DNA of 64,000 bases, from positions 3,200,001 through 3,264,000 of the forward strand of contig OX638340.1 of the NCBI GenBank assembly GCA_951812955.1, in the 5' to 3' direction. Below, one piece after another: positions 6,535-63,510 of the stretch; position 1 is the first letter of the stretch; every line of letters begins with the position of its first letter. This DNA is from an uncultured Gemmatimonadota bacterium. Lineage in GTDB: Bacteria > JAAXHH01. The translations under genes and the position numbers were made by a program. The notes beneath the pieces are model-generated. The model was not told the DNA's origin, did not search any database, and worked only from the letters and a program-made list of their open reading frames with translations.

Positions 6535-7709
6535 TGAGCCTGATCACGGGCATGTGCGCGGGGCTGCTGGCCGCCGGCCTGCTCAGCGGCGGGCTGTTTA
6601 CGATGCAGCCGACCGATCCTCTCCGACAGCCGACCGCACCTCCCCAGCGGCCGTCCGATCCGCCCCTGCAGCCGTCCGATCCGCCGCAGCGGTCGGTCGA
6701 CCCACCCCGGCTGCCGTCCGCACCTCCCCAGCGGTCGGTCGATCCACCGGGCATGATGGAAACGGGCACGGCTTCCGGGTTGCAGTACGGATTGGTCATC
6801 GCGGGAATCGGCGGCGAAAAGAAGTACGTGGACCGCAATCTGGACTGGGCGCGGGGTTTCCGCGACGTTTTGAGTTCCGACTACGGTTTCTCGGAAGACC
6901 GGCTGACCCTGCTGGTCGAGGATCCGGCCGGCGTCGGCGGTTTCCCGGCGGTGAAGTCCACGCTGGCAGAGATTCGACGAGTCCTGGCCGCCCTGGCGGA
7001 TCTCATTCGTCCCGGCGACGATCTGTTCATCCTGCTGATCGGCCATGGCAGCGCCACGGACGCAGGCGCCAGGTTGAATATCCCCGGTCCGGACCTGAGG
7101 GCGGACATGCTGCGCGATGCGCTCGAAGAGATCGGGGCGCGGTACACGGTCGTGGTGAATGGCGCGAGTTCCAGCGCACCTTTCATCGAGGCACTTAGCG
7201 GTCCCGGTCGCGTGATCGTTACGGCGACCAAAAGCGGTGCCGAACGGCTATCCACGGTCTTTCCGGAGCACCTGCTCGCAGCACTGAAAGCGAAGGCGGG
7301 GGACCTGGACAAGGACGGACGGATCTCGGTGCTGGAGTCTTTTGTCTACGCGAGGAACAAGACCTCGGAATGGTACGCCGGCGAGGGGCTTCTGGCTACC
7401 GAACATCCGCTGCTGGACGACAACGGCGACGGAAGGGGGACCCGGGAACCGGGGCCCGGCGGTACGGATGGGATGCTGGCCGGCAGGGTGTACTTCGGCC
7501 GCAGATCGACTGCCGCGGTGAAATCGGGTTCTCCCGAGGAACGGTCGCTGCAGGCCGGCATGGAGGCGTTGCGCTGGCAGATCGATGAGCTCAAAGCCCG
7601 CAAGGACCAGGTGGATCCTGGTGAATACACGGCGCGCATGGAGGAGTTGCTGATTGAACTGGCACGGGTGACCAGGCGGCTCAGAACGCTGGAAGGGAAT
7701 CCGCCGTGA
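6534..7709 (+). CDS. Pro-rich-repeat protein with a legumain/peptidase C13-like (caspase-fold) domain, possibly a pseudo-peptidase
   Basis: Starts MSLITGMCAGLLAAGLLSGGLF (signal/TM). Then four copies of a PPQRPSDPP-type repeat. Then LVIAGIGG...DDLFILLIGHGS...YTVVVNGASSSAPF, which aligns in my reading with legumain VLVAGS...HVFIYFTDHGS...YIEACESGSM. The His-Gly is retained, but the Cys position reads Ala/Ser. The start is coupled to the upstream gene (1-nt overlap). Confidence 0.4.
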   Translation: MSLITGMCAGLLAAGLLSGGLFTMQPTDPLRQPTAPPQRPSDPPLQPSDPPQRSVDPPRLPSAPPQRSVDPPGMMETGTASGLQYGLVIAGIGGEKKYVDRNLDWARGFRDVLSSDYGFSEDRLTLLVEDPAGVGGFPAVKSTLAEIRRVLAALADLIRPGDDLFILLIGHGSATDAGARLNIPGPDLRADMLRDALEEIGARYTVVVNGASSSAPFIEALSGPGRVIVTATKSGAERLSTVFPEHLLAALKAKAGDLDKDGRISVLESFVYARNKTSEWYAGEGLLATEHPLLDDNGDGRGTREPGPGGTDGMLAGRVYFGRRSTAAVKSGSPEERSLQAGMEALRWQIDELKARKDQVDPGEYTARMEELLIELARVTRRLRTLEGNPP

Positions 7710-24553: not shown

Positions 24554-24559
24554 GACCCC

Positions 24560-34568: not shown

Positions 34569-35678
34569 ATGCTCATCCTCGGAATCGATACTTCCTGTGA
34601 CGAAACCGCGGCCGCCGTCGTGCGCGATGAAACGACCGTCCTTTCCAACGTAATCTCATCGCAGGGCATACATAATGAATACGGGGGCGTCGTTCCGGAA
34701 CTGGCCTCCCGGGCCCACCTGTCCCTTCTCCTGCCTGCAATCGAATCGGCCCTGCATCAGGCTTCCTGCGAACCGGACGGCCTGGATGCCGTCGCCGTGA
34801 CCTATGGGCCGGGCCTCGCGGGCTGCCTTTTGATCGGGCTTACCACGGTCAAGTCCATCGCGCTGGCCATGGACAAGCCCCTGGTCGGCGTGAATCATAT
34901 CGAAGGCCACGTGTTCGCGGGGCGCCTGGCGGACGGGGAACTCGACCCTCCGTTCATCGCGCTAGTCGTATCCGGCGGACACACGCAACTGGTGCACGTC
35001 GAGCGGTGGGGCACGTACCATATCCTGGGCAATACCCGCGATGACGCGGCCGGCGAGGCCTTCGACAAGGTAGCCAGGCTGATGCGGGTAGGGTACCCTG
35101 GCGGTCCCGTCATCGATCGGCTGTCCCGCGACGGCGATCCCGGTTTCCTGGACTTTCCCCGGACCTACCTGGATCCGGAGGGATTCGAGTTCAGTTTCAG
35201 CGGCCTCAAGAACGCCATGCGCATGTATCTTTCCAAACGGTCGGAAGCGGAGATCGACCGCGACCTGGCCCATATCGCCGCGGCATTCCAGGAAGCCGTC
35301 GTAGACGTGCTGGTCGACAAGTCCATGGCCGCCGCCGCGTCCGTCGGGGTGGACGCTGTACTGATCACGGGCGGCGTGGCGTGCAACGGCCGTCTGCGCG
35401 AGCGGATGACCGAAAGGGGCGCCGAACTGGGGTTCAAGGTGGTCTATCCCCCACCCATTCTCTGCACGGACAACGGGGCCATGATCGCGGCGGCCGGGGC
35501 CTACCGGTTCCGCCAGGGGCAACGGGACGGGCTTTCGCTTTCCGTCCAGCCTCGCGCGCGCCTGTCCGCTTACAACGGAGTCGGGCTGAACGGGCAGGCC
35601 GGGCAGGCCGGGCAGGCCGGGCAGTCCGCGAGAGTCCGGTCCGGCGGTCAGTCCTCAAACCGAAGCAGTGGACCATGA
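34569..35678 (+). CDS. tsaD: tRNA N6-adenosine threonylcarbamoyltransferase TsaD (Kae1/Gcp)
   Basis: MLILGIDTSCDETAAAVV...GGVVPELASRAH... The C-terminus carries a GQAGQAGQAGQ tail (9-bp DNA repeat x3); the stop overlaps the next start (ATGA). Confidence 0.9.
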   Translation: MLILGIDTSCDETAAAVVRDETTVLSNVISSQGIHNEYGGVVPELASRAHLSLLLPAIESALHQASCEPDGLDAVAVTYGPGLAGCLLIGLTTVKSIALAMDKPLVGVNHIEGHVFAGRLADGELDPPFIALVVSGGHTQLVHVERWGTYHILGNTRDDAAGEAFDKVARLMRVGYPGGPVIDRLSRDGDPGFLDFPRTYLDPEGFEFSFSGLKNAMRMYLSKRSEAEIDRDLAHIAAAFQEAVVDVLVDKSMAAAASVGVDAVLITGGVACNGRLRERMTERGAELGFKVVYPPPILCTDNGAMIAAAGAYRFRQGQRDGLSLSVQPRARLSAYNGVGLNGQAGQAGQAGQSARVRSGGQSSNRSSGP

Positions 35679-39890: not shown

Positions 39891-39970
39891 TACGAAACCG
39901 GCGATAATTCGCTTGACAAATCCGCATATGTTCATATTCTATAAGTAATTATGCAGTGTGAACATCTTAT

Positions 39971-40013
39971 CCGCGCCGACGCGAAATAACAACCGAAACC
40001 GCGTCGGCGCCGG
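39971..40013 (+). promoter_or_regulatory. Perfect 11-bp inverted repeat (gcgccgacgcg / cgcgtcggcgc, 16-nt loop) in the 5' leader of the second TonB-dependent receptor gene; TTGACA-16-TATTCT promoter-like element just upstream (about 39925-39952)
   Basis: Seen directly in the sequence. No T-run follows, so it is not a classical terminator. Confidence 0.4.
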
Positions 40014-40059
40014 ACCCTGGATTCCTAAAGACTCATACATGCAGGAAGGAACCGCTTAG

Positions 40060-42834
40060 ATGCGACTGGCAGGCATTTTGCTCGCCTTGATCATGACGGC
40101 GATCCCGGCGGCGGCACAGGAGACGGGCAGTCTGGGCGGCAGGATCGTATCGGACAGCGGAGAGTTTCTCTTCGGAGCCACCGTCGTGGTCAAAAGTCCC
40201 GCGATCGATGGGTTGCGGGGCTCGACGAGCGATGACAGGGGAATGTACCGCGTAGACGGACTTCCCGCCGGGGTGTACGAGGTCTCCGTTACTTTCCTGG
40301 GTTACGAGTCGTTTACCACGACCGGGGTCATGGTTCGCGGCGGTGCGCGCACGGCAAGGGATTTCGTGCTGGCCGCTTCGGTGCTCGTGGGCCAGGAGGT
40401 CGTGGTCTCGGCCTCCCGGAAGCGTGAAAAGGCCCTGGACGCTCCGGCGTCCGTCGAAGTGATCGAAATGCGGGACATCAAGGATTCCCAGGCGCTGGCC
40501 GTCAATGAACACATCAAGGACCTCAGCGGCGTCGATTACGCGAAGACGGGCGTCGTACAGGCCAGCACCGTGATCCGGGGATTCAACAAGGCGATATCGG
40601 GTCTCCTGCTTACCATGGTGGACAACCGGATCGCGCGGATCCCGTCGTTGCGTATCAACTCCTTTCAGGTCATTCCCATCACCAGCGAGGACATCGAACG
40701 CATCGAGATCGTCCGGGGCCCGGGTTCGGCGCTTTACGGTCCCAACAGCTCAAACGGCGTGATGCACATCATTTCGCGCTCCCCATTCGGGTCGGAGGGT
40801 AACTTCGTATCCCTTTCCGGGGGAGAACGCAGCCTGCGCAAGGCCTCCTTCCGCCATGCCAGCAGCGTCAATGACAAGATCGGACTCAAGATCTCCGGCA
40901 AGTACCTGAAGGCCCGGGACTGGGAATTCCACGATCCGGAGGAAATCGTGCCGCGGGATTTCGGTATCCAAGGCCAGTACGGAGAGATCAGGCTCGACTT
41001 GCGGCCTACGGAAGAACTGACGTTCATCACATCGGCCGGGTACTCCAAAAGCAGCAGCATCCAGATGACGGGACAGGGTTCGGCACAGGGCAAAGACTGG
41101 CTGTATACACATCTCCAGGGCCGCATGCAGTACAAGGGCTGGTTCGGCCAGTTCTTCTACAACAAGAGCGATGCGGGAGAAACCAGGCTGCTTCGCACCG
41201 ATGAAAGCATCGTGGACAAGTCGTCGCTGACGGTCATGCAGTTGCAGCACACCAGGGACATCGGCCAGCGCCAGCAGTTCGTCTACGGGGTGGACCTGCT
41301 GCTCACCCGTCCCCGGACCGAGGGGACCATTCACGGCGACAACGAGGACGATGACGAGACCAATGAATTCGGGGTTTACCTGCAGAGCGAGACCAGGTTT
41401 ACCGACCAGGTGAGCCTGATGCTGGCCGGCCGCCTGGACGAGCACAACAGGCTCGATAACGTTGTATTCTCGCCCAGGGCGGCGCTGGTACTCAAGCCCA
41501 ATCCGGAAAGCACCTTCAGATTCACCTATAACCGGGCGTTCAACACGCCGACGGTGACGTCGTTCTCGCTGGACTTGAAGGCGGTCAACGATGCCTTTGG
41601 TTTCGGCGCGCTTTTCGGCGACCAGGGCCTGGGTCCCGACAACACCATCGACATCCGGTCCTACGGCGCGGCCAACGCCTTCACATTCCGCCGGGACGAA
41701 GCCGGCCTCCCCATGTACCGGTCTCCTTTCGCCACGGTTTCCGGGCTATCGAGGGATACCTTCCTGCGTCTCGATGATCCGGTCGCGACCAACATGCTGT
41801 GGGGTGCGGCAAGGGAACTGTTCGTCACTGAGATGGTCAAGCAACTGGGTGAGGACAGCGGGGGCATCGTAACGCCGGAACTGGCCGCGGAGTTCACCAA
41901 CGTGATCCCTGTGCAGCTCTCGGGACTGAGGAACAGCCTTGGGCTGCTCAGTCCTGAAACGGAAGCCTTTATTCCTCTGGACGCATCATCCGTCCAGGAC
42001 TTAGACAAGATACGCCCGACCATCACGCAGACCTTTGAGGTCGGATACAAGGGCGTGATCAAGAACAAACTGGTTCTGGCAGCCGATTTCTACCGCACGC
42101 AGATGACCGACTATACCCTGCCTCTATGGATTTTCACGCCTTCCGTGTTTCTCGACGCCGAGTCTGTCCGAACCGCACTGAGACAGGGTATCGACGACTA
42201 TCTGGCCGCCCCCGAGAACGCGCTGCTTGCCAGTCTGATCGTTCTGCTCGACCAACCGGGTCTCGGCGGCAACGGGAACGGCGACCACGGGGATGAAATC
42301 AACGGATACATCGATCAGATCGCGGACGGCGCCGCGATGATCCCCTTCGGAACCATCACGCCGGAGCAGGTCTCCGATCCCACGGCGGTGGCGTTGACTT
42401 ACCGGAATTTCGGCGACGTCACGGTCTACGGCGCCGACATGGGGTTTTCCTATTTCCCCAACAGGTCCTGGAACATCACGGGCAGCTACTCCTTCATCAA
42501 CCAGAACCTGTTCGAGAACGTGGAAAGCCTCGGCGACGTTCCCCTCAACGCGCCGAAGCACAAGTTCAGCGGAGGCGTTACGTTCCGGCCGGCCAAATGG
42601 CCCCTGACTCTGGGTGGCAAGCTCAGTTACCGGGGCCCCTTCCCCATGCTGGACGGCGTGTACGGAGGGCCGATCGACTCCTATACGCTATTCGATGTAA
42701 ACGCCGCGTACGAGTTCGCGCCCCTTACCATCAGCGTGGAAGCCAGCAACCTTTTAAACAACCAATACCGTTCCTTCATCGGCGCGCCTGAAATCGGCCG
42801 GTTGCTTTCCGCCGGCGTGGCCGTACGTTTCTGA
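40060..42834 (+). CDS. TonB-dependent outer-membrane receptor, tandem paralogue of 37056..39890
   Basis: Same architecture and collinear sequence (AQETGSLGGRI...GVYEVSVTFLGYES...DAPASVEVIE...VIRGFN...AGVAVRF). Confidence 0.8.
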   Translation: MRLAGILLALIMTAIPAAAQETGSLGGRIVSDSGEFLFGATVVVKSPAIDGLRGSTSDDRGMYRVDGLPAGVYEVSVTFLGYESFTTTGVMVRGGARTARDFVLAASVLVGQEVVVSASRKREKALDAPASVEVIEMRDIKDSQALAVNEHIKDLSGVDYAKTGVVQASTVIRGFNKAISGLLLTMVDNRIARIPSLRINSFQVIPITSEDIERIEIVRGPGSALYGPNSSNGVMHIISRSPFGSEGNFVSLSGGERSLRKASFRHASSVNDKIGLKISGKYLKARDWEFHDPEEIVPRDFGIQGQYGEIRLDLRPTEELTFITSAGYSKSSSIQMTGQGSAQGKDWLYTHLQGRMQYKGWFGQFFYNKSDAGETRLLRTDESIVDKSSLTVMQLQHTRDIGQRQQFVYGVDLLLTRPRTEGTIHGDNEDDDETNEFGVYLQSETRFTDQVSLMLAGRLDEHNRLDNVVFSPRAALVLKPNPESTFRFTYNRAFNTPTVTSFSLDLKAVNDAFGFGALFGDQGLGPDNTIDIRSYGAANAFTFRRDEAGLPMYRSPFATVSGLSRDTFLRLDDPVATNMLWGAARELFVTEMVKQLGEDSGGIVTPELAAEFTNVIPVQLSGLRNSLGLLSPETEAFIPLDASSVQDLDKIRPTITQTFEVGYKGVIKNKLVLAADFYRTQMTDYTLPLWIFTPSVFLDAESVRTALRQGIDDYLAAPENALLASLIVLLDQPGLGGNGNGDHGDEINGYIDQIADGAAMIPFGTITPEQVSDPTAVALTYRNFGDVTVYGADMGFSYFPNRSWNITGSYSFINQNLFENVESLGDVPLNAPKHKFSGGVTFRPAKWPLTLGGKLSYRGPFPMLDGVYGGPIDSYTLFDVNAAYEFAPLTISVEASNLLNNQYRSFIGAPEIGRLLSAGVAVRF

Positions 42835-52862: not shown

Positions 52863-53074
52863 TTTGCTTTACTTTGGCAACCGAATCCGAGATTATGTTG
52901 TGGAAGTGAGGCAGGTTCAATCATACGTGATTTTGGTGAAATGGTAGCATCATGCCTGGTCTTTTACTGCGCTGCTGGATTGCCGCAATGGTTGAAACGG
53001 ATGTTAAGCGATGAACGGCAAGATTAACCCGAATTGCGCTGTATGGGTAACCTAACCATGGGAAGGAGTTCTAC

Positions 53075-53728
53075 ATGAAACGATGGAGCAACACGGCTTC
53101 GATGCTGGCGCTCTGTGTTCTGGTCGCCGCACCCGTGTGGATGGGTGCGTGCTGCGCCGTATCCCGGGGACCTTCCGCGGAGGAACTGGCCGCCATGGAA
53201 GCCGAGCGGCAGCGGGCCGTAGAGGATTCCCTCAGGGCGGTGCGCGCTGAAGAAGAAGCCCGGCTCGCGGCTGAAGAAGAGGCCCGGCGGATGGCAGAAG
53301 AGGAAGCTCGGCTCGCCGCGGAGGAAGAAGCCCGGCTCGCTGCCGAAGAGGAAGCCCGGCTCGCTGCCGAGGCGGCAGCCCTGCACGCAGAGAGGATGTC
53401 TCTGTCGACCATCTACTTCAATTACGACCGTTCCAATGTCCGGGAAGACCAGCGACCGGCTCTGGATGAGAACGCCCAAAAGTTGCGGGAGTACCAGCCC
53501 GAAGACATGGTGGTTGTCGAGGGCCACGCTGATGAGCGGGGTACGATCGAATACAACCTGGCGCTGGGCGAACGGCGCGCCCAGGCGGTCAAGACCTATC
53601 TCGTGGATGCGGGCGTGGCGGACAGCCGCATCGAAACCGTCAGTTTCGGTGAAGAGAAACCGGCGGTCATGGGCAGCGACGAAAGCGCCTGGTCGCAGAA
53701 CCGCCGAGTGGAGCTTATGCGGAAGTAA
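53075..53728 (+). CDS. pal: Peptidoglycan-associated lipoprotein Pal (OmpA-family) with a repetitive EEARLAAEE linker
   Basis: Lipobox (WMGAC). OmpA-like domain motifs IYFNYDRSNVRED, VEGHADERGT.EYNLALGERRA, NRRVEL. Five or more copies of EEARLAAEE-type units in the linker. Confidence 0.85.
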   Translation: MKRWSNTASMLALCVLVAAPVWMGACCAVSRGPSAEELAAMEAERQRAVEDSLRAVRAEEEARLAAEEEARRMAEEEARLAAEEEARLAAEEEARLAAEAAALHAERMSLSTIYFNYDRSNVREDQRPALDENAQKLREYQPEDMVVVEGHADERGTIEYNLALGERRAQAVKTYLVDAGVADSRIETVSFGEEKPAVMGSDESAWSQNRRVELMRK

Positions 53729-53758
53729 GCCGAAAGCACCACGGGTAACGTGTCGTAC

Positions 53759-53791
53759 AGGGGCGGCCATGCACTGGCCGCCCTTTTTTTA
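53759..53791. terminator. Bidirectional terminator hairpin between the convergent pal and amidohydrolase_2 genes
   Basis: gggcggcc-atgcac-tggccgccc followed by ttttttt on the plus strand. Confidence 0.6.
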
Positions 53792-54682
53792 TGCTTCCGG
53801 CAGGAACGCCTTCCAGTTTTCATAGATCATGTTGTGTATGGCCTCTTCCGGAAAAACGGGCAGGGATGTATTTTGCGTCAGGTCGTTCACCTTCCACTGT
53901 CCCGCTATGACCTGTGCCGGCGTTGCCGAGGGAAAATCGGAACCGAAGATCAACTTGTGCTCCACCCCATACTCCAGGGCGGACATGAATGCCATGTAAT
54001 GGCGCAGCGGACGGTAGTGCAGCGCCGATATGTCCGCGTAGAGGTTCGGATGCTTTCGGATCAGGACCACGCATTCGTCCTCCCACGGATGTCCCATGTG
54101 GGCAATCATCATCCGCAGGTCCGGGCACGCCACCGCGATGTCCTCGAGCTGAATAGGATTGGCCCACTTGAGGGGACCCGGCCGCACGAAGGACGTGCCC
54201 TGGTGCCAGATGACGGGGATATCCAGCGCTTCCGCTTTCCTGAACAGGGGCAGGTAAGCCGGGTCCTGGGGGTCGAAGTGCTGGTAGATCGGCGCGACCT
54301 TCAATCCACGCAGTCCGAGTTCGTTTACGTTGTATTCGAGCTGTTCGACGGCGTCCTCGTCATTGGGATCGACGGAACACCAGCCGATGAAACGGTCCGC
54401 GTTCTCCGCCACGAATCCCGCGACGAGTTCCTGGGGCACGTTCACCCCGCAATAAGGCGCCTTCAACCCGAACACCACAACCCTGTCGCAGTCCTCCGTC
54501 GCCTTAAGCAGCGTTTCGGGCGTGGAGTCGAAGGCGTTCTTGTACCGGTCTTCGTGACCCGCGTAGTAAACGTCGTCGGACAGGCGCATCTTGGCCTTCT
54601 TCGCCGCATAGGCGAATTCCACGAATTCATCGGACATGTGATCCGGGTACCACATCAGGTTGGTGTGGATGTCGACTAGCAT
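53789..54682 (-). CDS. Amidohydrolase_2 (PF04909-like TIM-barrel metal-dependent hydrolase/decarboxylase family)
   Basis: MLVDIHTNLMWYP (the start HxH-like), ...VIWHQG..., IAHMGHPWEDE, FGSDFP. Start at the internal Met; the upstream part of the track ORF overlaps the ATPase gene. Confidence 0.7.
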   Translation of the reverse strand: MLVDIHTNLMWYPDHMSDEFVEFAYAAKKAKMRLSDDVYYAGHEDRYKNAFDSTPETLLKATEDCDRVVVFGLKAPYCGVNVPQELVAGFVAENADRFIGWCSVDPNDEDAVEQLEYNVNELGLRGLKVAPIYQHFDPQDPAYLPLFRKAEALDIPVIWHQGTSFVRPGPLKWANPIQLEDIAVACPDLRMMIAHMGHPWEDECVVLIRKHPNLYADISALHYRPLRHYMAFMSALEYGVEHKLIFGSDFPSATPAQVIAGQWKVNDLTQNTSLPVFPEEAIHNMIYENWKAFLPEA

Positions 54683-56544
54683 GTCTCTTCTCCCCCGGGG
54701 TTCGTGTGGTCGTTTCCACGGCCTAAGCTCGCGCGGATCATGTCCGCGGCTTCTTCCAGATTGAAACAGCCGGGATCGACGGGAATCCCTGCCGCGTGGA
54801 CGGCGGTCATCAGATTGCATAGACCCGGCAGCCCGGGCCGCTCCGGCCTCTCGGGCCTCCCGGACCGCTCCGCCCGCCCCTGCGCGGACGCATCGACCGC
54901 GGCCTCCCGGGCGAACAGACGCTCCGGCGTGGTGTCCGCCGCAATGCCGCCGTTCTCCATGACCAGGACCCGGTCCGCCAGGCGGGAGACCAGGTCCATG
55001 TCATGGGTGATCAGGAAAAGAGTCGCCCCCCCATCCTTGCAGGCTTTGAAAATCGCCTCGACCTGTCGTACGCTTTGCGGATCGAGACCGGACGTGGGCT
55101 CGTCGAGGGCGAGGACGGATGGTTCCATGACCAGTATTCCGGCGATCGCGGCCCTGCGTTTTTCTCCGCCGCTTAGCGACAGGGGATGCCGATGCGAGAA
55201 CTGTGCGGGATCGAGGCGGACCCGTTCCAGCGCCCGGTTCACCAGGCTCTCGATTTTCGAATCTTCCGTGCCTGTTTGCCTGGGACCGAAGGCCACGTCG
55301 TCGAAAACGGTTTCCTCGAACAACTGGGCTTCCGGGAACTGGAAGACCAGCCCCACCTTCTGACGCAGCTTCCGCAGGTCGGTTTCCTTGGAGGTTACGT
55401 CCCCACCATCGACCCGAACCGTGCCCGAATCCGCTTTTAGCAGGCGGTTCATGTGCTGGATCATCGTGGACTTACCGGAACCGTTCGGTCCGGTCAGTGC
55501 GACGCAATCCCCGGGGTACACCCGCGTGGTCACACCGCGCAACGCCGAGATCGCCAGGGAAGTTCCGGGGGAATAGGTATGGCACACCCGGTCGAATTCG
55601 ATGATGGGCGGCGTGGCCGGAATCGCCCCCGCCGGCGGATCGACCGGTTTCTCAATAACCTCCGAACTTGCATCGGACGATGGCATGGTCCCCGGCATTA
55701 GGGACGGAGGCCTGGGCATCCTGCCAGAAAGCCACTGCACAAGGGAATCGGGATGGACGGTACCGGCCGGTACCGGAAGCCCGCGTGCGCGCAAGGCGTC
55801 CGACAGCCGCTCGGACAGCGGTGCCTCGAGTCCGTGTGCCGCGAGCCGTTCCGTATCCCGGAATACTTCCTCCGGCGTTCCCTCCGCTGCGACGGCCCCA
55901 TCCACCACCATCGCGATGCGGTCCATCCGGACGGCTTCCTCGGGAGACTGCGTGATGAAGACCACGCTGAGCCGGTATTCATCCACGATAGACAGGAGCA
56001 GGCCGAGGATGTCCTGCCGGTCGCCGGGGTCCAGTGACGAGGTGGGCTCGTCGCAAATGAGGTACCGGGGACGCATAGAGACCACGGAAGCGATAGCCAC
56101 GCGTTGTTTTTCGCCGCCGGACAGCCTGTGGGGCGGATAATGGCGGTACTTTTCCAGGTGGAACCGGTCGAGCGCCCACGCGACCCGCCGGTGGATCTCC
56201 CTCGATGGCAGGCCGAGGTTTTCGAGCCCGAAAGCCACCTCACGCTCGACCGTGGTCGAGACCAGCTGGTTGTCCGGGTTCTGGAAGATCATCCCGGTTC
56301 GCTGGTGGACCTGCCACGTGTTCGACGGTTCGGCCGTATCCAGGCCATCCACCAGGACCCGGCCGGACTGGGGTACGATCAACCCGTTTAAACAGCGGGC
56401 GAGGGTGCTCTTTCCCGAGCCGTTGGGGCCGATCACGGCCACGCTTTCGGATTCGCCGATTTCCAAAGACAGGCCTCGCAGCGTGGGGACCGCGTTTCCC
56501 GGCTGGACCCGGTAACTGAACGTTACGTCTTTGGCGATGATCAA
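54676..56544 (-). CDS. Fused tandem ECF-type ABC ATPase (EcfA1-EcfA2-like)
   Basis: Two complete NBDs. Walker A GPNGSGKST twice; LSGGEKQRV and LSGGEKRRA signatures. MIFQNPDNQL and LVFQFPEAQLFEETVFDDVAFG are typical EcfA Q-loop regions. Confidence 0.8.
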   Translation of the reverse strand: MIIAKDVTFSYRVQPGNAVPTLRGLSLEIGESESVAVIGPNGSGKSTLARCLNGLIVPQSGRVLVDGLDTAEPSNTWQVHQRTGMIFQNPDNQLVSTTVEREVAFGLENLGLPSREIHRRVAWALDRFHLEKYRHYPPHRLSGGEKQRVAIASVVSMRPRYLICDEPTSSLDPGDRQDILGLLLSIVDEYRLSVVFITQSPEEAVRMDRIAMVVDGAVAAEGTPEEVFRDTERLAAHGLEAPLSERLSDALRARGLPVPAGTVHPDSLVQWLSGRMPRPPSLMPGTMPSSDASSEVIEKPVDPPAGAIPATPPIIEFDRVCHTYSPGTSLAISALRGVTTRVYPGDCVALTGPNGSGKSTMIQHMNRLLKADSGTVRVDGGDVTSKETDLRKLRQKVGLVFQFPEAQLFEETVFDDVAFGPRQTGTEDSKIESLVNRALERVRLDPAQFSHRHPLSLSGGEKRRAAIAGILVMEPSVLALDEPTSGLDPQSVRQVEAIFKACKDGGATLFLITHDMDLVSRLADRVLVMENGGIAADTTPERLFAREAAVDASAQGRAERSGRPERPERPGLPGLCNLMTAVHAAGIPVDPGCFNLEEAADMIRASLGRGNDHTNPGGEETC

Positions 56545-57704
56545 GGCAGTTGATCCAGCGCCACGCGGCCGGCGGCTTCCCGGACGGCCGCATACACGTC
56601 GGCGAGCGGAACGCCGCTGCTGAGCGCAGCCTGGCGGCAGTCTTCGTATTCGGGGGTATATCGCCGGGAATCCCCGTGTTCCACGACCTTGATCCGGATC
56701 GCGCCGTAGGGGGTTTCAACGGTGGTTTCGCTACGGGGCAGCACGCTGCGTGAGACGGGGTAAGTTCTGAGGCCTATGGTCGTCGTTTCTCGGAAGATCA
56801 GCCCGGACAACCGCCCGGTCAATGCGGCCGGCGCAAGCACAGTGAGCAGTACGCCCGGCCGGTTTTTCTTCATGATCACCGGTGTAAGGAAGGCGTCCAG
56901 CGCGCCGGCTTCGAGCAGCAGGTCCACGACGTGGCCGTAGAACTGCGGATTCATGTCGTCGATCTGCGTTTCCAGGATCTGCACGGAACCTCCGCCGGCC
57001 ACTTCTCCAGCCACTTCGCCGGCCTCGCCCGTACACAGCCTGGCGACGTGCCCATCTCCCCGGTCATTGTCGTCCCCCCCGTAGCCCATGTTCCGCAGCG
57101 TGAAACCGGTTCTGATCATCGGTCCCGCCGACAAGGCGGTTAAAAAGGCGCATCCCGGCAGGTCGATGGGGGCGTGGTCGACGGGTTGTATTGCGGCGCC
57201 TCTCATCAGGGCGGCCTGGAGTGGCGGCGTGGATTCGATACCCGCGGCGAAGGGCAGTGCTACGTGGTGGAGGGATTCGATCCCGAGCAGGTGGAGGGCG
57301 TTGCAGAGGAGCAGAATGCGCAGGGCCGTGTGACGTCCGCCCAGCGCTTCCACGGTCGGCGCCTGGTCCTCCGTCCCCCGCAGTCCGTTTACGTTCTTTT
57401 CCAGGTGGTCGATCACCCTCGTGATGAGTACGGCGGCCGGTGAGTCCGCTCCGCCTCCCGGTATGGCACGGCAGGTCTCTGGCACGGACGCCTCGGCACA
57501 CGACAGCGAGGTGTACGTCACCCGGTACCCGGCGACAAGCCCCTCAGTAACGTTGATCCCGCAATCCACGCCATGATGGCTCTTCATGGCTGATTCAAGC
57601 GCGATCGGGTCCACTCCCGCGTCGATCATCGCGGCGAGCAGCATGTCCGCGGTAAGGCCGGACAACTGGTCGAAGTATCCTGCCAAAGCCATTGGACCCG
57701 CCAT
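56541..57704 (-). CDS. larC: LarC-family protein (DUF111; nickel insertion protein of nickel-pincer nucleotide cofactor biosynthesis)
   Basis: N-terminus MALAGYFDQLSGLTADMLLAAMIDAGV parallels the LarC start (..DCFSGISGDM.LGAL.D.GV). Length about 387 aa. Confidence 0.65.
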   Translation of the reverse strand: MAGPMALAGYFDQLSGLTADMLLAAMIDAGVDPIALESAMKSHHGVDCGINVTEGLVAGYRVTYTSLSCAEASVPETCRAIPGGGADSPAAVLITRVIDHLEKNVNGLRGTEDQAPTVEALGGRHTALRILLLCNALHLLGIESLHHVALPFAAGIESTPPLQAALMRGAAIQPVDHAPIDLPGCAFLTALSAGPMIRTGFTLRNMGYGGDDNDRGDGHVARLCTGEAGEVAGEVAGGGSVQILETQIDDMNPQFYGHVVDLLLEAGALDAFLTPVIMKKNRPGVLLTVLAPAALTGRLSGLIFRETTTIGLRTYPVSRSVLPRSETTVETPYGAIRIKVVEHGDSRRYTPEYEDCRQAALSSGVPLADVYAAVREAAGRVALDQLP

Positions 57705-57706
57705 CC

Positions 57707-58459
57707 CTATTCGTGTTTCCGGTTGATGAGGCCGGCCGCGTAACCGGCGTTGAACCCGCCGTCGATATTCACCACCGTAACGCCCGAAGCGCAGCTGTTC
57801 AGCATGGCCAGGAGCGCTGCCAGCCCATTGAAACTGGCGCCATACCCGACGCTGGTCGGTACGGCTATCACCGGTCTGGAGACCATTCCGCCGACCACGC
57901 TGGGCAGGGCGCCCTCCATACCCGCCGCGACGACGAGCACCGATGCGTTCATGATGGCCTCATGGTGGGAAAGGAGCCGGTGGATGCCGGCCACGCCGAC
58001 GTCGTAGAGACACTCGACCCGATTGCCCAGTACCCGGGCCGTAACCGCGGCTTCTTCGGCCACCGGGATATCGCTCGTGCCCGCCGAGACGACCAGCACC
58101 TCCCCGATGCCCAGGTCCCGCCAGGAGTCCTGGACCACGATCGTCCGGGCCGCCTCGTGGTACTCCGCGCCGGGACACCGCGCCGCCACGGCGTCGTACA
58201 TGGCCGGAGTCGCCCGGGTGGCGAGCAGGTCGCTCCCAGACGCGACAATGCGTTCCGCGATACCGGCCACCTGGCCGTCGGTCTTCCCCGTGCAGAAGAT
58301 CACCTCGGGAAACCCGCACCGCATCGCCCTGTGGTGGTCCACCCGCGCGTAACCGAGATCCTCGAAGGGCAAGGACCGCAGCCTGCTCGACGCCTCGTCA
58401 ACCGACAGATCGCCGGCGCGGACCTGTTGGAGCAACTGCCTGATCTGCGATTCGTTCAT
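57707..58459 (-). CDS. larB: LarB (PurE-like pyridinium-3,5-biscarboxylic acid mononucleotide synthase)
   Basis: About 250 aa. IRQLLQQVRAGDLSVDEA, DHHRAMRCGFPEVIF, VVSAGTSDIPVAEEAAVTA, MEGALPSVVGG, VPTSVGYGASFNGLAALLAMLNSCASGVTVVNIDGGFNAG. This is collinear with the LarB family as I recall it. Confidence 0.8.
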   Translation of the reverse strand: MNESQIRQLLQQVRAGDLSVDEASSRLRSLPFEDLGYARVDHHRAMRCGFPEVIFCTGKTDGQVAGIAERIVASGSDLLATRATPAMYDAVAARCPGAEYHEAARTIVVQDSWRDLGIGEVLVVSAGTSDIPVAEEAAVTARVLGNRVECLYDVGVAGIHRLLSHHEAIMNASVLVVAAGMEGALPSVVGGMVSRPVIAVPTSVGYGASFNGLAALLAMLNSCASGVTVVNIDGGFNAGYAAGLINRKHE

Positions 58460-58526
58460 GAGTGGCTACAAGGTCTTCGGGGGCTGATTCGCTTACGGAG
58501 TTCCGCTGTGACACTCCATCTGGTCA

Positions 58527-58627
58527 TACGGTGACGCCCCTGACGGATTATATGGTGAAGGCCCTACCTGGTTGTGGTTGTACGGTGGCGCCCTTGCCTG
58601 GGTTGTGCGGTGACGCCATTGCCCCGG
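58527..58627. promoter_or_regulatory. Three imperfect about 21-bp direct repeats (tacggtgacgcccctgacgg / tacggtggcgcccttgcctgg / tgcggtgacgccattgccccgg) in the upstream region of larB
   Basis: Seen directly in the sequence. Spacing is 54 and 25 nt. Located 70-170 nt upstream of the larB start codon on the opposite strand. Confidence 0.45.
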
Positions 58628-58644
58628 GCCGGCGCCTGCCGCGT

Positions 58645-59928
58645 CTATTCCTCAATCGTAGTTTCTCCGTCCAGCACTTCGATGCGCGCGCCAGAGGCAT
58701 GGCGCGCCTGCTGCAGTCTTGCCGCCACTGCCTCCGCTTCACGCATCACGCGCAGCACGTTGCGCCCGAGGATCTTCAGGACATCCTCGTCCGAATAACC
58801 CCGCCGGATCAGTTCGGCCGTCAGCATGGGATAGGTGGACACATCCTCCAGTCCCACCGGGACCGTGGAAATGCCGTCGTAATCGCCGCCGATGCCGATG
58901 TAATCGATGCCGGCTACCTGCCGGATGTGATCGATATGGTCGGCCACCTGTGCCAGGGTGGCAGGCGGCGTGGGATTGGCCTCGTTCCAGGTGGCCATGC
59001 CTTCCGCCACCGATTCATCCGTACTGCCCGGCATCGCCGCGAGCCGCTCCCGCTCTTCGTTGCGCTTCACGCCGTGAAGGCGGGTTTCTTCCGAGATATA
59101 AGCAGGTACGAAGGTGACCATGACCACGCCGTTGTTATCGACCAGGCGCTCCAGGACGTCGTCGGGGACGTTGCGCACGTGGTTGCACATGGCCAGGGAC
59201 GAGGAATGGCTGAAGATGACGGGGGCCTCCGAAACGTCCAGGGCGTCCCGCATGGTCGCCGGGGAGACGTGGGACAGGTCCACCAACATGCCCAGGCGGT
59301 TCATCTCCCGGACCACCTCTTTTCCGAATTCCGTCAGGCCGTCGACCGCGACGGTGTCTGTAGCCGAATCGGCCCAGGGCACGTTGCGGCTGTGGGTCAG
59401 CGTCATGTATCCGACGCCCAGCCGGTGGAACATGCGGAGCGCGCCGAGGGAGGAGTCAATGGAATGTCCTCCTTCAATGCCCAACATGGACGCGATCCTG
59501 CCTGCCGCGAAGGCCGCTTCCACTTCGTCCGCCGTAGCGGCCAGTTGGAATGTGTCCGGATACCGGGCGGCCATCTGGTACACGATATCGATTTCCTCCA
59601 TGGTCGCGCGCACGGCTTCTTTTCCCTGCATGGAAGCGGGTACGTAAACCGACCAGAACTGGGCGCCGAGCATGCCCTCGCGCAGGCGGGGAATGTCGGT
59701 ATGCAGGTCCGGCTGCGATTCGGCGATGTCAATCGACCAGACGTCCCGGTTCGCCTTCCTGCGAATCTGCCAGGGAAGGTCGTTGTGCCCGTCGATCAGC
59801 GGGACTTTCGCGTGCAGTGCCCTGGCGCGTTCGACGGGATCTTCGGGCATGGGCTCTTCGGCCGGCGCACAGGCGGATGTCAGCGCGACGAGACATAGGC
59901 CAGTCAGCAACAGGATGAGTGAATGCAT
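58645..59928 (-). CDS. Membrane dipeptidase (peptidase M19 / renal dipeptidase family), lipoprotein
   Basis: MHSLILLLTGLCLVALTSACAP (lipobox). PLIDGHNDLPW, ...VDLSH..., GIGGDYDGI are characteristic of M19. Confidence 0.85.
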   Translation of the reverse strand: MHSLILLLTGLCLVALTSACAPAEEPMPEDPVERARALHAKVPLIDGHNDLPWQIRRKANRDVWSIDIAESQPDLHTDIPRLREGMLGAQFWSVYVPASMQGKEAVRATMEEIDIVYQMAARYPDTFQLAATADEVEAAFAAGRIASMLGIEGGHSIDSSLGALRMFHRLGVGYMTLTHSRNVPWADSATDTVAVDGLTEFGKEVVREMNRLGMLVDLSHVSPATMRDALDVSEAPVIFSHSSSLAMCNHVRNVPDDVLERLVDNNGVVMVTFVPAYISEETRLHGVKRNEERERLAAMPGSTDESVAEGMATWNEANPTPPATLAQVADHIDHIRQVAGIDYIGIGGDYDGISTVPVGLEDVSTYPMLTAELIRRGYSDEDVLKILGRNVLRVMREAEAVAARLQQARHASGARIEVLDGETTIEE

Positions 59929-60262
59929 GATTCCTCCGGGGTGAATCCAGTATATTGTAGGTCCAACTGTGTCAGGCCGAGGATTGGATATACGCACGGA
60001 AGGCTAAGAAAGCTGTATGCGCGTACCCATTCCTCGTGTAGTCAGTCTCCACTAAAATTAACGATATTCAGGTCAGGGCAAGGGATATTTGGGTGATTGC
60101 GCCGCTAGAACTCACCCATCCGGACGGTTCGTTGCACCCCATGGTACCTGGCATGATAGCGCTTTGAACCGCTGTCGAAATCTCATGTTGCCATTCCCAT
60201 GATACCGGGTTACTTTTCACTGGTCCAAGTGACCCGATACCCCCCCATTCCAAGGAGTCCGC

Positions 60263-61273
60263 ATGGCTCGATTTACCATTCTCGCGCCCGGCAATCCCGA
60301 TAATCCCGGTCCCAATCAGTATATCAGGGACGAACTGGAAACGATTGGCGCCGAGCTCAGGATACGTCCCTTCAGCACACTAGAGGAAATGCTGGAAGAG
60401 GCCCGGGACGTGGACGGCTTTACCCAGGGCGGCCTGACCTATAATCGGGAAACCGTGGAGCAACTGCCCGACCGCATACGCGTTGTGGGCGCGGGCGGGA
60501 TCGGCGTGGACTTCATCGACGTGGAAGCGGCCACGGAACGGGGGATCATCGTATACAACATCCAGGGCGTTTTCGAACGGGAGGTCGCCCAGCACGCCAT
60601 GATGCTGCTGCTTGCGTGCGCCCGCCGGCTGATGCCCATCAACCGGTCCATGATCGAAGGCACCCCCGTCAGCCGCGGCACCATTCAACCTGTATACGAG
60701 CAGACCCTCGGCCTCGTGTCCTTCGGGAATATCGGCCGGGCCATGGCGAAGATCGCCACCGGTTTCGATCTGCGTATCATTGCCTGCGATCCCTTCGTCA
60801 GCCAGGCCGCCGCCGATCCCTGGGGCGTGACGATGGTGGACCAGGAAACGCTGTTCAAGGAATCCGACTTCGTTTCGTGCCATGTACCCCTGACGCCCAG
60901 TACCCACCACATCATCGGGGAGCGGGATTTCCGGAACATGAAACCCTCCGCCTACTTCATCAACACGGGACGCGGCAAGGTCGTGGACGAAAAGGCGCTC
61001 ATCGAGGCGTTGCAGGAAGGGCGGCTCGCCGGCGCAGGGCTGGACGTGCAGGAGCAGGAGCCCCCGGCTCCGGACAACCCGCTGCGCAAGATGGATAACG
61101 TGGTCCTCACACCCCATTACGCTTCCGCGTCGGTTCGGGGTGGGATCGAGCGCGCAAGAAAAGCAGGCCAGCAACTGGTCACCATTCTCAGTGGCCGCTG
61201 GCCCGACGACGGCCTCGTAAATCCCGCCGTAAAGAAACTCGCCGCCGAAAAATGGGGCATGCCCGCAGAGTGA
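60263..61273 (+). CDS. D-isomer-specific 2-hydroxyacid dehydrogenase (NAD-binding)
   Basis: GLVSFGNIGRAMAK (GxGxxG), FINTGRGKVVDEKAL, LDVQEQEP, VLTPHYAS. Confidence 0.85.
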   Translation: MARFTILAPGNPDNPGPNQYIRDELETIGAELRIRPFSTLEEMLEEARDVDGFTQGGLTYNRETVEQLPDRIRVVGAGGIGVDFIDVEAATERGIIVYNIQGVFEREVAQHAMMLLLACARRLMPINRSMIEGTPVSRGTIQPVYEQTLGLVSFGNIGRAMAKIATGFDLRIIACDPFVSQAAADPWGVTMVDQETLFKESDFVSCHVPLTPSTHHIIGERDFRNMKPSAYFINTGRGKVVDEKALIEALQEGRLAGAGLDVQEQEPPAPDNPLRKMDNVVLTPHYASASVRGGIERARKAGQQLVTILSGRWPDDGLVNPAVKKLAAEKWGMPAE

Positions 61274-61303
61274 CCGGGTGACCGGCGAAGGCACGGATCC
61301 TCC

Positions 61304-62008
61304 ATGTTCTACGATACCGTGATTTTTGATGCGGCGGGTACCCTCGTCGGCCGGGATTCTCCGGATTTCTTCGAGGAGTTCTTCGTTGTCGCGGCCGGGG
61401 AGCTCGGGACCGAGGTGACACTGAACCAGGTGAAGGCCGCGCTTTCGAAATCCATGGAGGAACCGCGGTTCCGGCTTCGCGAAGGACGCATGAGCACGCC
61501 GGAGCAGACGCGCCGGTACTTTCTGGATCTCTACGCCCACGTGTTGAACGGAGCGGGCGTTGAGGGTGACCTGGCGCAGGGGTTACAGGCGTACTACGAC
61601 CGGTTCCAGGACGGCAGGTACCTGGACGTGTACAGCGACGTCCGGCCCACGCTGGAAGCGCTGAAGACCGGTGGCATGCGCCTCGGGGTGCTGTCGAACT
61701 GGTCGGAACACCTCGCGCTGGTCCTGGAGCGGCTCGACCTGGACCGGTACTTCTCCTTCCTCGTCGTTTCCGCCGAAGTCGGATGTGAAAAGCCCGACGA
61801 GGAGATCTTCCGCCTGGCCCTGGATCGTGCGGAAACCCCGATCGACCGCATCCTGTACATCGGAGACTACCCGGAGGAGGACATCCTGCCCGCCGAGCGT
61901 ATCGGGCTGGATGCCCTCCTCATCGATCGGTACGACAAGTACGGGCGATATCGCCTGCCCACCATCAACACATTGACGGATGTCCCCGGACTGATTGGCC
62001 TCTCATGA
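61304..62008 (+). CDS. HAD-superfamily hydrolase (subfamily IA-like)
   Basis: VIFDAAGTL (the DxxGT motif I), LGVLSN (motif II), YIGD (motif IV context). Confidence 0.75.
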   Translation: MFYDTVIFDAAGTLVGRDSPDFFEEFFVVAAGELGTEVTLNQVKAALSKSMEEPRFRLREGRMSTPEQTRRYFLDLYAHVLNGAGVEGDLAQGLQAYYDRFQDGRYLDVYSDVRPTLEALKTGGMRLGVLSNWSEHLALVLERLDLDRYFSFLVVSAEVGCEKPDEEIFRLALDRAETPIDRILYIGDYPEEDILPAERIGLDALLIDRYDKYGRYRLPTINTLTDVPGLIGLS

Positions 62009-62019
62009 GGGAAGCGTCC

Positions 62020-62138
62020 TGAACGAGTGCGTCAAGAACGAAGGTGTGTCATGAACGAAGGCGAACCATGAACGAAGACGTGGCATGAACGAGTGCAAAC
62101 CATGAACGTAGGCGAACCATGAACATAGGCGAACCATG
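62020..62138. repeat. Tandem array of 17-bp repeats (consensus catgaacgaaggcgaac; five clean copies plus one or two degenerate 5' copies). The final copy supplies the ATG start codon of the downstream oxidoreductase.
   Basis: Copies at 62050, 62067, 62084, 62101 and 62118, then catgac... at 62135 where ATG 62136 is the gene start. 17 is not a multiple of 3. Confidence 0.85.
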
Positions 62139-63377
62139 ACAGAGAAACCGATCCGCGTAGGCGTAGTGGGCGTGGGCCGCGGGAAGAGTTTCGCGCAGAC
62201 CGCGTCCGGCGCCGTGGGCATGCAGCTCGTCGCGCTGTGCGACACCTGGGAGGAGCGGTTGCAGCAGTTGGCCGGGGAACTCTCCGTCGCCGCGTACACC
62301 GATTACGACGCATTCCTCACCCACGACATGGACGCCGTCGTCCTGGCCAACTACTTCCACCAACACGCGCCGTTCGCCATCAAGGCTCTGCGGGCGGGGC
62401 GGCACGTCATGAGCGAGACGGCCTCCAACGCCACCCTGGCCGAGGGGGTGGCCCTGTGCCGGACCGTTGAGGAGACCGGCCGGATCTACATGTTGGCCGA
62501 GAACTATCCGTACACGGTCTTCAATCAGGAGATGCACCGGTTGTACGGCGAGGGGGAGATCGGCGAGGTAACCTATGCCGAGGGGGAGTACAACCACCCC
62601 ATGGCCCGGGACGACAGCCTCCGCCTGTCACCGGGATTCGACCACTGGCGGGCGTGGATTCCCTCCACCTATTACTGCACCCACGCCCTGGCTCCGCTGG
62701 TATACATCACCAATACGCGGCCGGTTGGCGTGAACGCCCTTGCCATCGCGCGGCCCGAGCGCACCCTCACGCTCAGGAGAGGAGACCCGGGGTCTGTCAT
62801 CCTCTGCCGCATGGACAATGGCGCGGTGTTTCGGATCTTCGGACTCAGTATGCCGGGCCACAGCAACTGGTACCGCGTGCACGGCGAACGGGGCGCCATG
62901 GAGATCACGCGGGGACCGGGATACTTCGGACCGGGAGAGGTGCGGGTGTGGCATGAGCCGTGGCACCTGGAACCCGGCCAGGAAGCGGAACGGGTATACC
63001 GGCCGGACTGGCCCGAACACGGCGATCTCGCCCGCGAGGCTGGGCACGGGGGTGGCGACTTCTGGACCAGTTTCCATTTTGCCCGGGCCATCCGTTCGGG
63101 CGAACAGCCCTTCCTGGACGTCTACCGCGGCGTAGCCATGTCGTCGGTGGGCATCCTGGCCTGGAAAAGCGCGCTGGAAGACGGGCGCCCCTTCGAAGTG
63201 CCCGATTTCAGGGACGAGGACGACCGTAAATCCTGGGAGAACGACCACTGGTCGCCCTGGCCCGGACATGCCGGACCGGGACAGCCGCCTCCCAGCATAC
63301 TCGGCCGTCGCGACCCGGCTCCGGAACATATCCCATACGCCCGTCGCATATGGAAGGACATGGGTTACGAGGGGTAA
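62136..63377 (+). CDS. Gfo/Idh/MocA-family NAD(P)-dependent oxidoreductase
   Basis: IRVGVVGVGRGKSF (N-terminal Rossmann GxGxxG), then ...FIEKP-like ANYFHQHA..., and a long C-terminal alpha/beta domain. Confidence 0.8.
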   Translation: MTEKPIRVGVVGVGRGKSFAQTASGAVGMQLVALCDTWEERLQQLAGELSVAAYTDYDAFLTHDMDAVVLANYFHQHAPFAIKALRAGRHVMSETASNATLAEGVALCRTVEETGRIYMLAENYPYTVFNQEMHRLYGEGEIGEVTYAEGEYNHPMARDDSLRLSPGFDHWRAWIPSTYYCTHALAPLVYITNTRPVGVNALAIARPERTLTLRRGDPGSVILCRMDNGAVFRIFGLSMPGHSNWYRVHGERGAMEITRGPGYFGPGEVRVWHEPWHLEPGQEAERVYRPDWPEHGDLAREAGHGGGDFWTSFHFARAIRSGEQPFLDVYRGVAMSSVGILAWKSALEDGRPFEVPDFRDEDDRKSWENDHWSPWPGHAGPGQPPPSILGRRDPAPEHIPYARRIWKDMGYEG

Positions 63378-63435: not shown

Positions 63436-63510
63436 GACCCCATCGTCTAGCCTGGCCAAGGACACCGCCCTTTCACGGCGGCAACACGGGTTCAAATCCC
63501 GTTGGGGTCA
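63436..63510 (+). tRNA. tRNA-Glu (anticodon UUC); CCA not encoded
   Basis: GACCCCATCGTCTAGCCTGGCCAAGGACACCGCCCTTTCACGGCGGCAACACGGGTTCAAATCCCGTTGGGGTCA. Near-identical architecture to E. coli tRNA-Glu (CGUCUAG D-arm, CCCUUUCACGG anticodon loop, GGTTCAAATCC T-loop). Perfect 7-bp acceptor stem. Confidence 0.9.

Follow-up and report, generated by a model that had tools for sequence, protein, structure and literature searches.

A lar gene cluster of an uncultured lineage that joins LarB to a LarC homologue with an intact LarC2 domain and a degenerate LarC1 domain

In a 64,000-nucleotide stretch of DNA from an uncultured Gemmatimonadota bacterium (contig OX638340.1, positions 3,200,001 to 3,264,000; hereafter the window, with positions counted from its first letter), four co-oriented minus-strand genes encode homologues of the nickel-pincer cofactor proteins LarB and LarC, a fused energy-coupling factor (ECF) ATPase and an Amidohydro_2 enzyme (Table 1). 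An earlier note on this DNA had read the four genes as one operon, and their spacing agrees with this: larB and the larC homologue, here called larC', lie 2 nt apart, the TTG start of the ATPase gene overlaps the larC' stop by 4 nt, and the ATPase and amidohydrolase genes overlap by 7 nt. The last figure follows from moving the amidohydrolase start from the ATG of the longest open reading frame (ORF) at 54820, which lies inside the ATPase gene, to the ATG at 54682 (MLVDIHTNL...). We take the latter as the true start because the resulting 297-aa product is the one called in public assemblies of relatives and because of the 7-nt overlap with the ATPase gene. The locus is not a complete nickel-pincer pathway with a new client enzyme. 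We favor the view, with a probability of about 0.55, that it is a nickel-insertion-deficient variant lar module of one uncultured lineage.

The first gene of the four matched the NCBIfam equivalog NF033503 with 291 bits (cutoff 175), which upholds its earlier assignment as larB. Its product aligned with Lactobacillus plantarum LarB (PDB 7mj0) with 243 bits over residues 7-247 and retained the NSCASG motif with the catalytic cysteine. Within the lineage, LarB identity was 70-100%, and identity to the L. plantarum enzyme was about 60%. On these matches, LarB is canonical.

The LarC homologue differs sharply between its two halves. In the structure of the complete LarC protein of Moorella thermoacetica, nickel insertion was mapped to the LarC1 domain and activation of the substrate with cytidine monophosphate (CMP) to the LarC2 domain (PMC13510736). 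LarC1 contains a histidine patch (H53, H70, H72, H108, H116, H118, H160, and H226) and an acidic pocket (D15, E104, R71, E119, D124, D128, and E187) in which E104 is the proposed nucleophile (PMC13510736). A HMMER alignment of window LarC' to this protein (PDB 12bi) showed that D15 is the only patch or pocket residue kept. Residues H70, R71, H72, E104, H108, H116, H118, E119, D124, D128, H160, Y180, E187, and H226 are substituted or deleted, and the classic LarC motifs HFHEVG, LPVPAPAT, ELVTPTGAA, and PNLLR are lost. The same LarC1 residues were lost in all of the approximately 25 loci of the lineage and in the 84 clade proteins of a large database search. The curated LarC1 model TIGR00299.2 (nickel_LarC1, cutoff 90) did not match window LarC' at E ≤ 0.001, and a clade member (P0204) reached 47.5 bits, below the cutoff, while two canonical controls (P0208 and P0225) scored 195 and 209 bits. 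The LarC2 model NF052512, with a cutoff of 50, gave 152 bits for window LarC', inside the canonical range of 141-168 bits. The LarC2 half also matched PDB 6bwo (99.7 bits, 41% identity, target-normalised TM-score of 0.78). The earlier larC call was thus sound for the C-terminal half and failed for the N-terminal one.

This division extends across the clade. Counting as conserved any position at least 90% conserved in canonical LarC1, 84 clade proteins kept 22 of 72 LarC1 columns, mostly Gly, Ala, Leu, and Asp residues clustered toward the N-terminus; for LarC2, the number of canonical-conserved columns kept was 39 of 46. The boundary of the group was sharp: proteins P0121-P0207, which are 36-100% identical, were all of the variant type, and those from P0208 onward were canonical. 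The N-terminal half alone scored 33 bits against PF01969 and, as sole query, retrieved only 33 proteins among 1.84 billion representatives. The variant clade amounts to a handful of 50%-identity clusters. In one species (L064), the LarC1 domain is deleted and the gene encodes a 182-aa protein of LarC2 size only. A full-text literature search on LarC1 and LarC2 found no description of a LarC homologue without the LarC1 site. Reading function from sequence, LarC' keeps an intact LarC2 domain predicted to bind cytidine triphosphate (CTP).

The N-terminal half has nonetheless not been left to decay. AlphaFold2 predicted it to fold, with predicted local distance difference test (pLDDT) values by block mostly of 75-98, and its ratio of nonsynonymous to synonymous substitution (dN/dS) was 0.27-0.40, as against 0.10-0.34 for the C-terminal half. 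Judged by these ratios, the N-terminal half shows purifying selection that is relaxed relative to the C-terminal half. The LarC1 half is therefore folded and constrained but without the histidine patch and acidic pocket of the nickel-insertion site. These values bear on the idea that the locus is a relic, in which the pathway has been lost and larB and larC' are decaying, kept only by synteny beside a housekeeping ECF ATPase. Such decay could account for the lost LarC1 site, the local absence of LarE described below, and the LarC1 deletion in one species. It does not fit the identity of LarB, the low dN/dS of LarC2 and its retained columns, the 24 loci in which no frameshifts or stops were seen, or the 4-nt overlap of larC' with the ATPase gene in 23 of 24 loci, and we consider it highly improbable.

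A more serious rival is an ordinary split pathway, in which larE and a client gene (for a LarA homologue or an enzyme of the aldo-keto reductase (AKR) type) lie elsewhere in the genome, LarC' inserts nickel by means of a rebuilt site or together with a partner, and the ATPase powers nickel uptake. The canonical LarB, the intact LarC2 domain, and the selection on the N-terminal half of LarC' are all consistent with it. Against it stand the loss of 13 of the 14 experimentally important LarC1 residues that we checked, including the proposed nucleophile E104 and the whole histidine cluster, the failure of the curated LarC1 model to match, and the species that has no LarC1 domain at all.

The distribution of LarE bears on the same question. 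We scanned about 50 ORFs with Pfam and NCBIfam over nearly the whole 64-kb window, an essentially complete coverage with few short ORFs left out, and found no LarE, LarA, EcfT/CbiQ, or S component, as the earlier note had stated for the surroundings of the operon. No member of the PP-loop family appeared in the Pfam scans of the window. With LarE probes taken from canonical LarC metagenome loci (TIGR00268 283-315 bits, cutoff 150), tblastn found no LarE in the window or in loci L001-L087, about 26 of them lar-linked, up to 10 kb on each side. No window ORF belonged to the LarA family (PF09861), which was also absent from the Pfam lists for L001-L003, L085, and L086. As a background we used canonical loci from a metagenome scan with the LarC' profile, which returned almost only canonical LarCs. 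For 23 such loci, 5 kb or more of sequence was available on each side; LarB was present in 14 of them, LarE in 9, some ABC ATPase in 3, and the amidohydrolase in none. Set against this background, the local absence of LarE is a property of the clade, although split systems also occur elsewhere. The split pathway gains from the second part of this statement, since LarE lies within 10 kb in only 9 of the 23 canonical loci and about 15% of genomes carry larBCE without larA (PMC11796402). It loses from the first, as LarE was found within 10 kb in 0 of about 26 lineage loci compared with 9 of the 14 canonical loci that have LarB. On balance, we regard a split pathway as unlikely, though still a contender.

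The third gene encodes two ATPase units in one chain. The protein scored 514 bits against the EcfA equivalog TIGR04520 (cutoff 315) and 507 bits against the EcfA' equivalog TIGR04521 (cutoff 330), in line with the earlier description of a fused ECF ATPase. Each half has intact Walker A, signature, and Walker B motifs. The H-loop histidine of the N-terminal half is replaced by glutamine (ITQ) in 11 of 11 aligned orthologues, among them outgroup sequences whose records carry the labels Latescibacterota, Zixibacteria, and Planctomycetota, whereas (T/S)H(D/N) is retained in the C-terminal half. This difference in sequence suggests that the two ATP sites form an inherently asymmetric pair. Both halves also contain motifs, NPDNQLV and FPEAQLF, that resemble the ECF Q-helix.

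No EcfT or S gene was found beside the ATPase gene in the lineage or in the outgroup orthologue loci examined. Three outgroup orthologues (L087, L168, and L169) are 46-48% identical to the window protein and have no T or S genes. They lie within about 4 kb of a pyrC-like dihydroorotase gene, and that of L087 is also near rplM-rpsI. The fused ATPase has the look of an energising module of the ECF type that is shared across the lineage and may serve general purposes. For the relic explanation, the outgroup orthologues standing alone near pyrC suggest the housekeeping role that it assumes. The split pathway draws support from another locus, in a Planctomycetota metagenome-assembled genome (L168:518-7692, on a contig of 8,082,295 bp), where the orthologous fused ATPase (48% identity) lies just downstream of two LarA homologues. 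The gene run there reads HAD, LarA homologue, HpcH aldolase, iron-containing alcohol dehydrogenase (Fe-ADH), second LarA homologue, two small ORFs, and then the ATPase. The two small ORFs were considered as S and T components and rejected; their products are soluble and resemble a toxin-antitoxin pair. The L168 genome also encodes an orthologue of the amidohydrolase (P0101), away from the ATPase gene.

The fourth product belongs to Amidohydro_2, as had been proposed (Table 1). Its AlphaFold2 model (mean pLDDT 84) is a TIM-barrel that Foldseek matched to family members with a probability of 1.00. The uncharacterised protein BB4693 (3irs) is both the closest solved sequence (E = 1e-7) and the best structural match, with LigW, gamma-resorcylate decarboxylase, IDCase, ACMSD, and LigI-like proteins (12-20% identity) ranking next. 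The strand-1 motif is HxN (H6 and N8) where the canonical form is HxH (or ExH); the strand-8 Asp (GSDFP) and the strand-5/6 His residues are kept. Residues H160, H195, H198, and D249 and an SALHYRPLRHY loop are invariant.

We scanned GTDB species genomes with the amidohydrolase and sorted the resulting 80 loci by tblastn with the window proteins. In about 25 loci, the amidohydrolase was at least 81% identical to that of the window and lar genes were present. In about 55, it was 73-81% identical and no lar gene lay within 10 kb; these were labelled Planctomycetota, other Latescibacterota or Gemmatimonadota, Poribacteria, and others. Clustering of the neighbours at the loci without lar genes placed a major facilitator superfamily (MFS) transporter immediately upstream in 21, and other recurrent neighbours were N,N-dimethylformamidase-beta-like (DMFA2_C), MR_MLE (enolase superfamily), Kelch, DHDPS-like, and formamidase/acetamidase (FmdA_AmdA) proteins. 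Amidohydrolase identity remains at 73-98% over records labelled Planctomycetota, Latescibacterota, Gemmatimonadota, Poribacteria, Verrucomicrobiales, and Acidobacteria, far above the conservation of any neighbouring gene. This hints at extreme constraint or else at a recent spread, by horizontal transfer, of an uncharacterised enzyme whose usual place is behind an MFS transporter.

These data weigh on the proposal of the earlier note that the amidohydrolase is a client of the pathway or a tailoring step, for example a (de)carboxylase or hydrolase that acts on the LarB product. Several features agree with it: loci of the shallow clade retain the 7-nt overlap between the ATPase and amidohydrolase genes, the structural neighbours include LigW, gamma-resorcylate decarboxylase, and IDCase, which decarboxylate aromatic and heteroaromatic acids non-oxidatively, and an anionic substrate would be in keeping with the many His, Arg, and Lys residues that are invariant. 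Orthologues also occur in lar-rich phyla, with LarA homologues in 80-100% of Planctomycetota species (PMC11770544), so that a functional lar link may remain. However, the two modules are separable. A deep-branch locus (L085) reads LarB-LarC'-EcfAA-[535-aa AAA_33 P-loop protein]-Pal and lacks the amidohydrolase, and another locus (L024) has ilvE-like, aroA-like, amidohydrolase, and Pal genes without lar or ATPase genes. About 55 of the 80 orthologue loci have an MFS-led context instead of a lar one, none of the 23 canonical LarC loci has the amidohydrolase nearby, and a gap of 18 to 24 nt takes the place of the overlap with the ATPase gene in deep branches. Moreover, at lar-linked loci the amidohydrolase holds 81-98% identity while LarC' drops to 37% and the ATPase to 47%, a gap from which we conclude that amidohydrolase and LarC' are not co-evolving. 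The proposal did not stand up to these observations, none of which links the enzyme specifically to the LarB product, and a role as client or tailoring enzyme now seems improbable.

Conservation across relatives identifies the part of the operon that holds together. The metagenome-assembled genomes of the lineage carry the label Gemmatimonadota or Latescibacterota, and to judge from many of the isolate names the samples came from sponges, corals, or marine sites. About 25 loci share one lar-linked neighbourhood: GFO, HAD, and 2-hydroxyacid dehydrogenase genes, a divergent M19-LarB-LarC'-EcfAA-amidohydrolase set, and a convergent Pal gene. The 4-nt larC'/ATPase overlap is present in all deep branches but L035, and one locus (L086) keeps the four-gene arrangement even though its ATPase is only 47% identical. 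The larB/larC' junction ranges from -4 to +50 nt, and the ATPase/amidohydrolase junction is -7 nt in the shallow clade and +18 to +24 nt in deep branches. Taken together, the separable modules, the junctions, and the identity gap argue that larB-larC'-ecfAA' is the conserved core and the amidohydrolase an add-on, and we predict that larB-larC'-ecfAA' is the conserved functional unit. In L085, the position of the amidohydrolase (5959-7566) is filled by the 535-aa protein, whose AAA_33 P-loop kinase-like domain is C-terminal, and genes for an Nramp metal transporter and a Trm112-like protein (249-1928) lie divergent from and upstream of larB.

A nickel-insertion-deficient variant lar module would work as follows. 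LarB would carboxylate and hydrolyse nicotinic acid adenine dinucleotide (NaAD) to pyridinium-3,5-biscarboxylic acid mononucleotide (P2CMN). LarC' would bind CTP and probably activate a pyridinium-carboxylate mononucleotide with CMP, but would itself be unable to form the Ni-C bond, so that the locus alone would yield a nickel-free and probably non-thiolated nucleotide or supply an intermediate to proteins whose genes lie elsewhere. The fused ECF ATPase, translationally coupled to LarC', would need T and S components from elsewhere, and the amidohydrolase would be a co-transcribed enzyme with its own substrate rather than a dedicated client of the cofactor. The earlier suggestion that the locus departs from the textbook pathway is borne out by the lost LarC1 site and the absence of a local LarE. 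A more specific proposal is that LarB and a LarC' active only through LarC2 make a nickel-free, sulfur-free pyridinium-3,5-dicarboxylate nucleotide (P2CMN or its cytidine dinucleotide) that is itself put to use as a cofactor or metabolite; we hold this to be quite unlikely. If true, the product would represent an unrecognised branch of nickel-pincer metabolism, possibly stoichiometric with an ECF-type ATPase.

Several points weigh against a nickel-insertion-deficient module. The dN/dS of the LarC1-like half implies that this half does something, and LarC' may bind nickel at a site that it shares with a partner or that is built from different residues. Other parts of the genome may encode LarE, another canonical LarC, clients such as LarA or AKR-type enzymes, and EcfT/S, in which case the pathway would be an ordinary split one. 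The adjacency of the ATPase and LarA genes in the Planctomycetota genome is a second, independent association of this ATPase with lar genes and keeps a role in nickel supply plausible. The loci compared are not independent, as they share common ancestry and a general synteny that includes Pal and the 2-hydroxyacid dehydrogenase, and conserved gene order is therefore weaker evidence than the number of loci suggests. Finally, the proposed product, P2CMN or its CMP adduct, is one that we only infer.

Upstream of larB, the 185-nt spacer contains three good 23-nt repeat copies (58601-58623, 58576-58598, and 58522-58544), 63-164 nt from the larB ATG, and two degenerate copies (58545-58568, with TATAAT at 58548-58553, and 58497-58520). 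The 12-nt core GGCGYCACCGYA occurs three times in this spacer and nowhere else in the window, compared with 0.11 occurrences expected by chance, and we therefore consider the array real. It is limited to the closest strains (L001-L003/L009 and L005), which have one unit more than the window, and was absent from the orthologous spacers of every other species in the lineage. Among the sister species, at least seven (L011, L013, L015, L017, L018, L020, and L083) have the stop of the M19 gene 3 nt before the larB GTG, which argues for an ancestral five-gene operon starting with the dipeptidase. The repeat spacer thus appears to be a recent expansion with a strain-variable tandem array, and it may carry a local promoter, as the TATAAT in one degenerate unit would allow. 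The direct repeats of the earlier note are thus real, but its candidate regulator binding site is not a conserved operator: the copy number varies, only the nearest strains have the repeats, and sister spacers are 3 nt long. A riboswitch or leader RNA was rejected as well, with no Rfam match even at E ≤ 1 and a folding z of +0.37 relative to shuffled sequences. A dispersed repetitive extragenic palindromic (REP)-like element found no support, with no further copies in the window. In another locus (L025), an inverted heptamer array, (TTGGTGA)x3 ... (CCAATCA)x4, lies in the M19-larB spacer about 90 nt upstream of larB (near 6211-6300) and would form a long hairpin.

Table 1. Positions of the lar operon, its parts, and flanking features in the window.
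Feature	Position	Strand	Assignment or description
M19 (renal-type) dipeptidase gene	58645..59997	-	PF01244, 409 bits
M19-larB spacer, 185 nt	58460..58644	-	23-25-nt direct repeats
larB	57707..58459	-	canonical P2CMN synthase (predicted), NF033503
larC', whole gene	56541..57704	-	Pfam PF01969 ("Ni_insertion"), 208 bits
larC', N-terminal half	56991..57704	-	LarC1-like fold
larC', C-terminal half	56541..56990	-	LarC2 (CTP-binding, CMP-transfer) domain, NF052512
Fused EcfA-EcfA' ATPase gene	54676..56544	-	TTG start; TIGR04520 + TIGR04521
Amidohydro_2 enzyme gene	53789..54682	-	297 aa; PF04909, 121 bits
GC-rich hairpin between convergent amidohydrolase and pal genes	53759..53785		11-bp stem, 8 GC pairs, T-run next on plus strand
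pal	53075..53728	+	last gene of plus-strand tol-pal cluster
2-hydroxyacid dehydrogenase / HAD hydrolase / GFO/IDH/MocA oxidoreductase trio	60263-63377	+	divergent from lar operon

The surroundings of the operon are conserved to varying extents. The hairpin between the amidohydrolase and pal genes probably acts as a terminator in both directions and closes the operon, and a promoter-like site lies upstream of the M19 gene at 60227-60199. The dehydrogenase/HAD/GFO trio is kept beside the lar operon across most of the lineage, and in deep branches the 2-hydroxyacid dehydrogenase gene is directly divergent from larB. The idea that this dehydrogenase is a disguised pincer enzyme found no support; it has an ordinary dinucleotide-binding motif (SFGNIG...D) and an Arg/Glu/His triad. 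A 248-aa minus-strand ORF (53024-53770) considered as a hidden membrane (T/S) component is spurious, being antisense of pal. Elsewhere, the window encodes tRNA-Glu(TTC) (63436-63510), TsaD (34569-35678), two tandem TonB-dependent receptors (37056-42834), and a GyrB/ParE-GyrA/ParC-like pair (22559-26551); the ORFs at 773-1621 and 6501-7709 matched nothing in Pfam or NCBIfam.

New uses of the nickel-pincer cofactor are currently sought by mining the neighbours of larB, larC, and larE, and LarC is usually regarded as the surest marker of cofactor synthesis (PMC13524815). The clade described here is annotated as "LarC family nickel insertion protein" without having the nickel-insertion site, while its LarB and CTP domain are strongly constrained. 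A LarC or PF01969 annotation alone is thus no proof that a nickel-pincer cofactor is produced, and the amidohydrolase can be dropped from the candidate new clients. As a natural separation of the LarC half-reactions, the clade could be used to test the proposed CMP activation or might bring to light a LarB-product derivative that contains no nickel.

In L. plantarum, an ECF-type ATPase is encoded by larO of the larR(MN)QO operon. The window locus resembles the LarB-LarE-LarC systems of L. plantarum and M. thermoacetica in its clear LarB orthologue, retained LarC2, adjacent genes, and linked ECF-type ATPase. It differs from them in having no local LarE or LarA, no LarC1 site, and no transporter membrane components, and in the translational coupling of LarC' to the ATPase. 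Compared with ECF transporters that have fused ATPase subunits, both halves pass the EcfA models and carry Q-helix-like motifs, but no EcfT/S gene adjoins and the N-terminal half has Gln for the H-loop His. The amidohydrolase shares the TIM-barrel and family-level matches with BB4693, LigW, gamma-resorcylate decarboxylase, IDCase, ACMSD, and LigI-type lactonases; it is set apart from solved Amidohydro_2 enzymes by its low identity to them, the HxN motif, and its own invariant loops. New non-LarA clients have been found by neighbourhood mining that required LarB and LarE near LarC (PMC13524815). Like those clients, the amidohydrolase is a TIM-barrel enzyme beside lar genes in a region without larA, but unlike them it has no conserved lar linkage outside one lineage, and the mining pipeline, which needs LarB and LarE within 20 ORFs of LarC, would have filtered out the present locus. 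The nearest parallel to a LarC2 fold without a functional LarC1 is the stand-alone LarC2-like protein MK0293 of Methanopyrus kandleri (PDB 3c19), only 24% identical to LarC'. The L064 product, of LarC2 size only, is like such stand-alone proteins, whereas most members of the lineage differ from MK0293 in keeping a folded and constrained N-terminal domain derived from LarC1.

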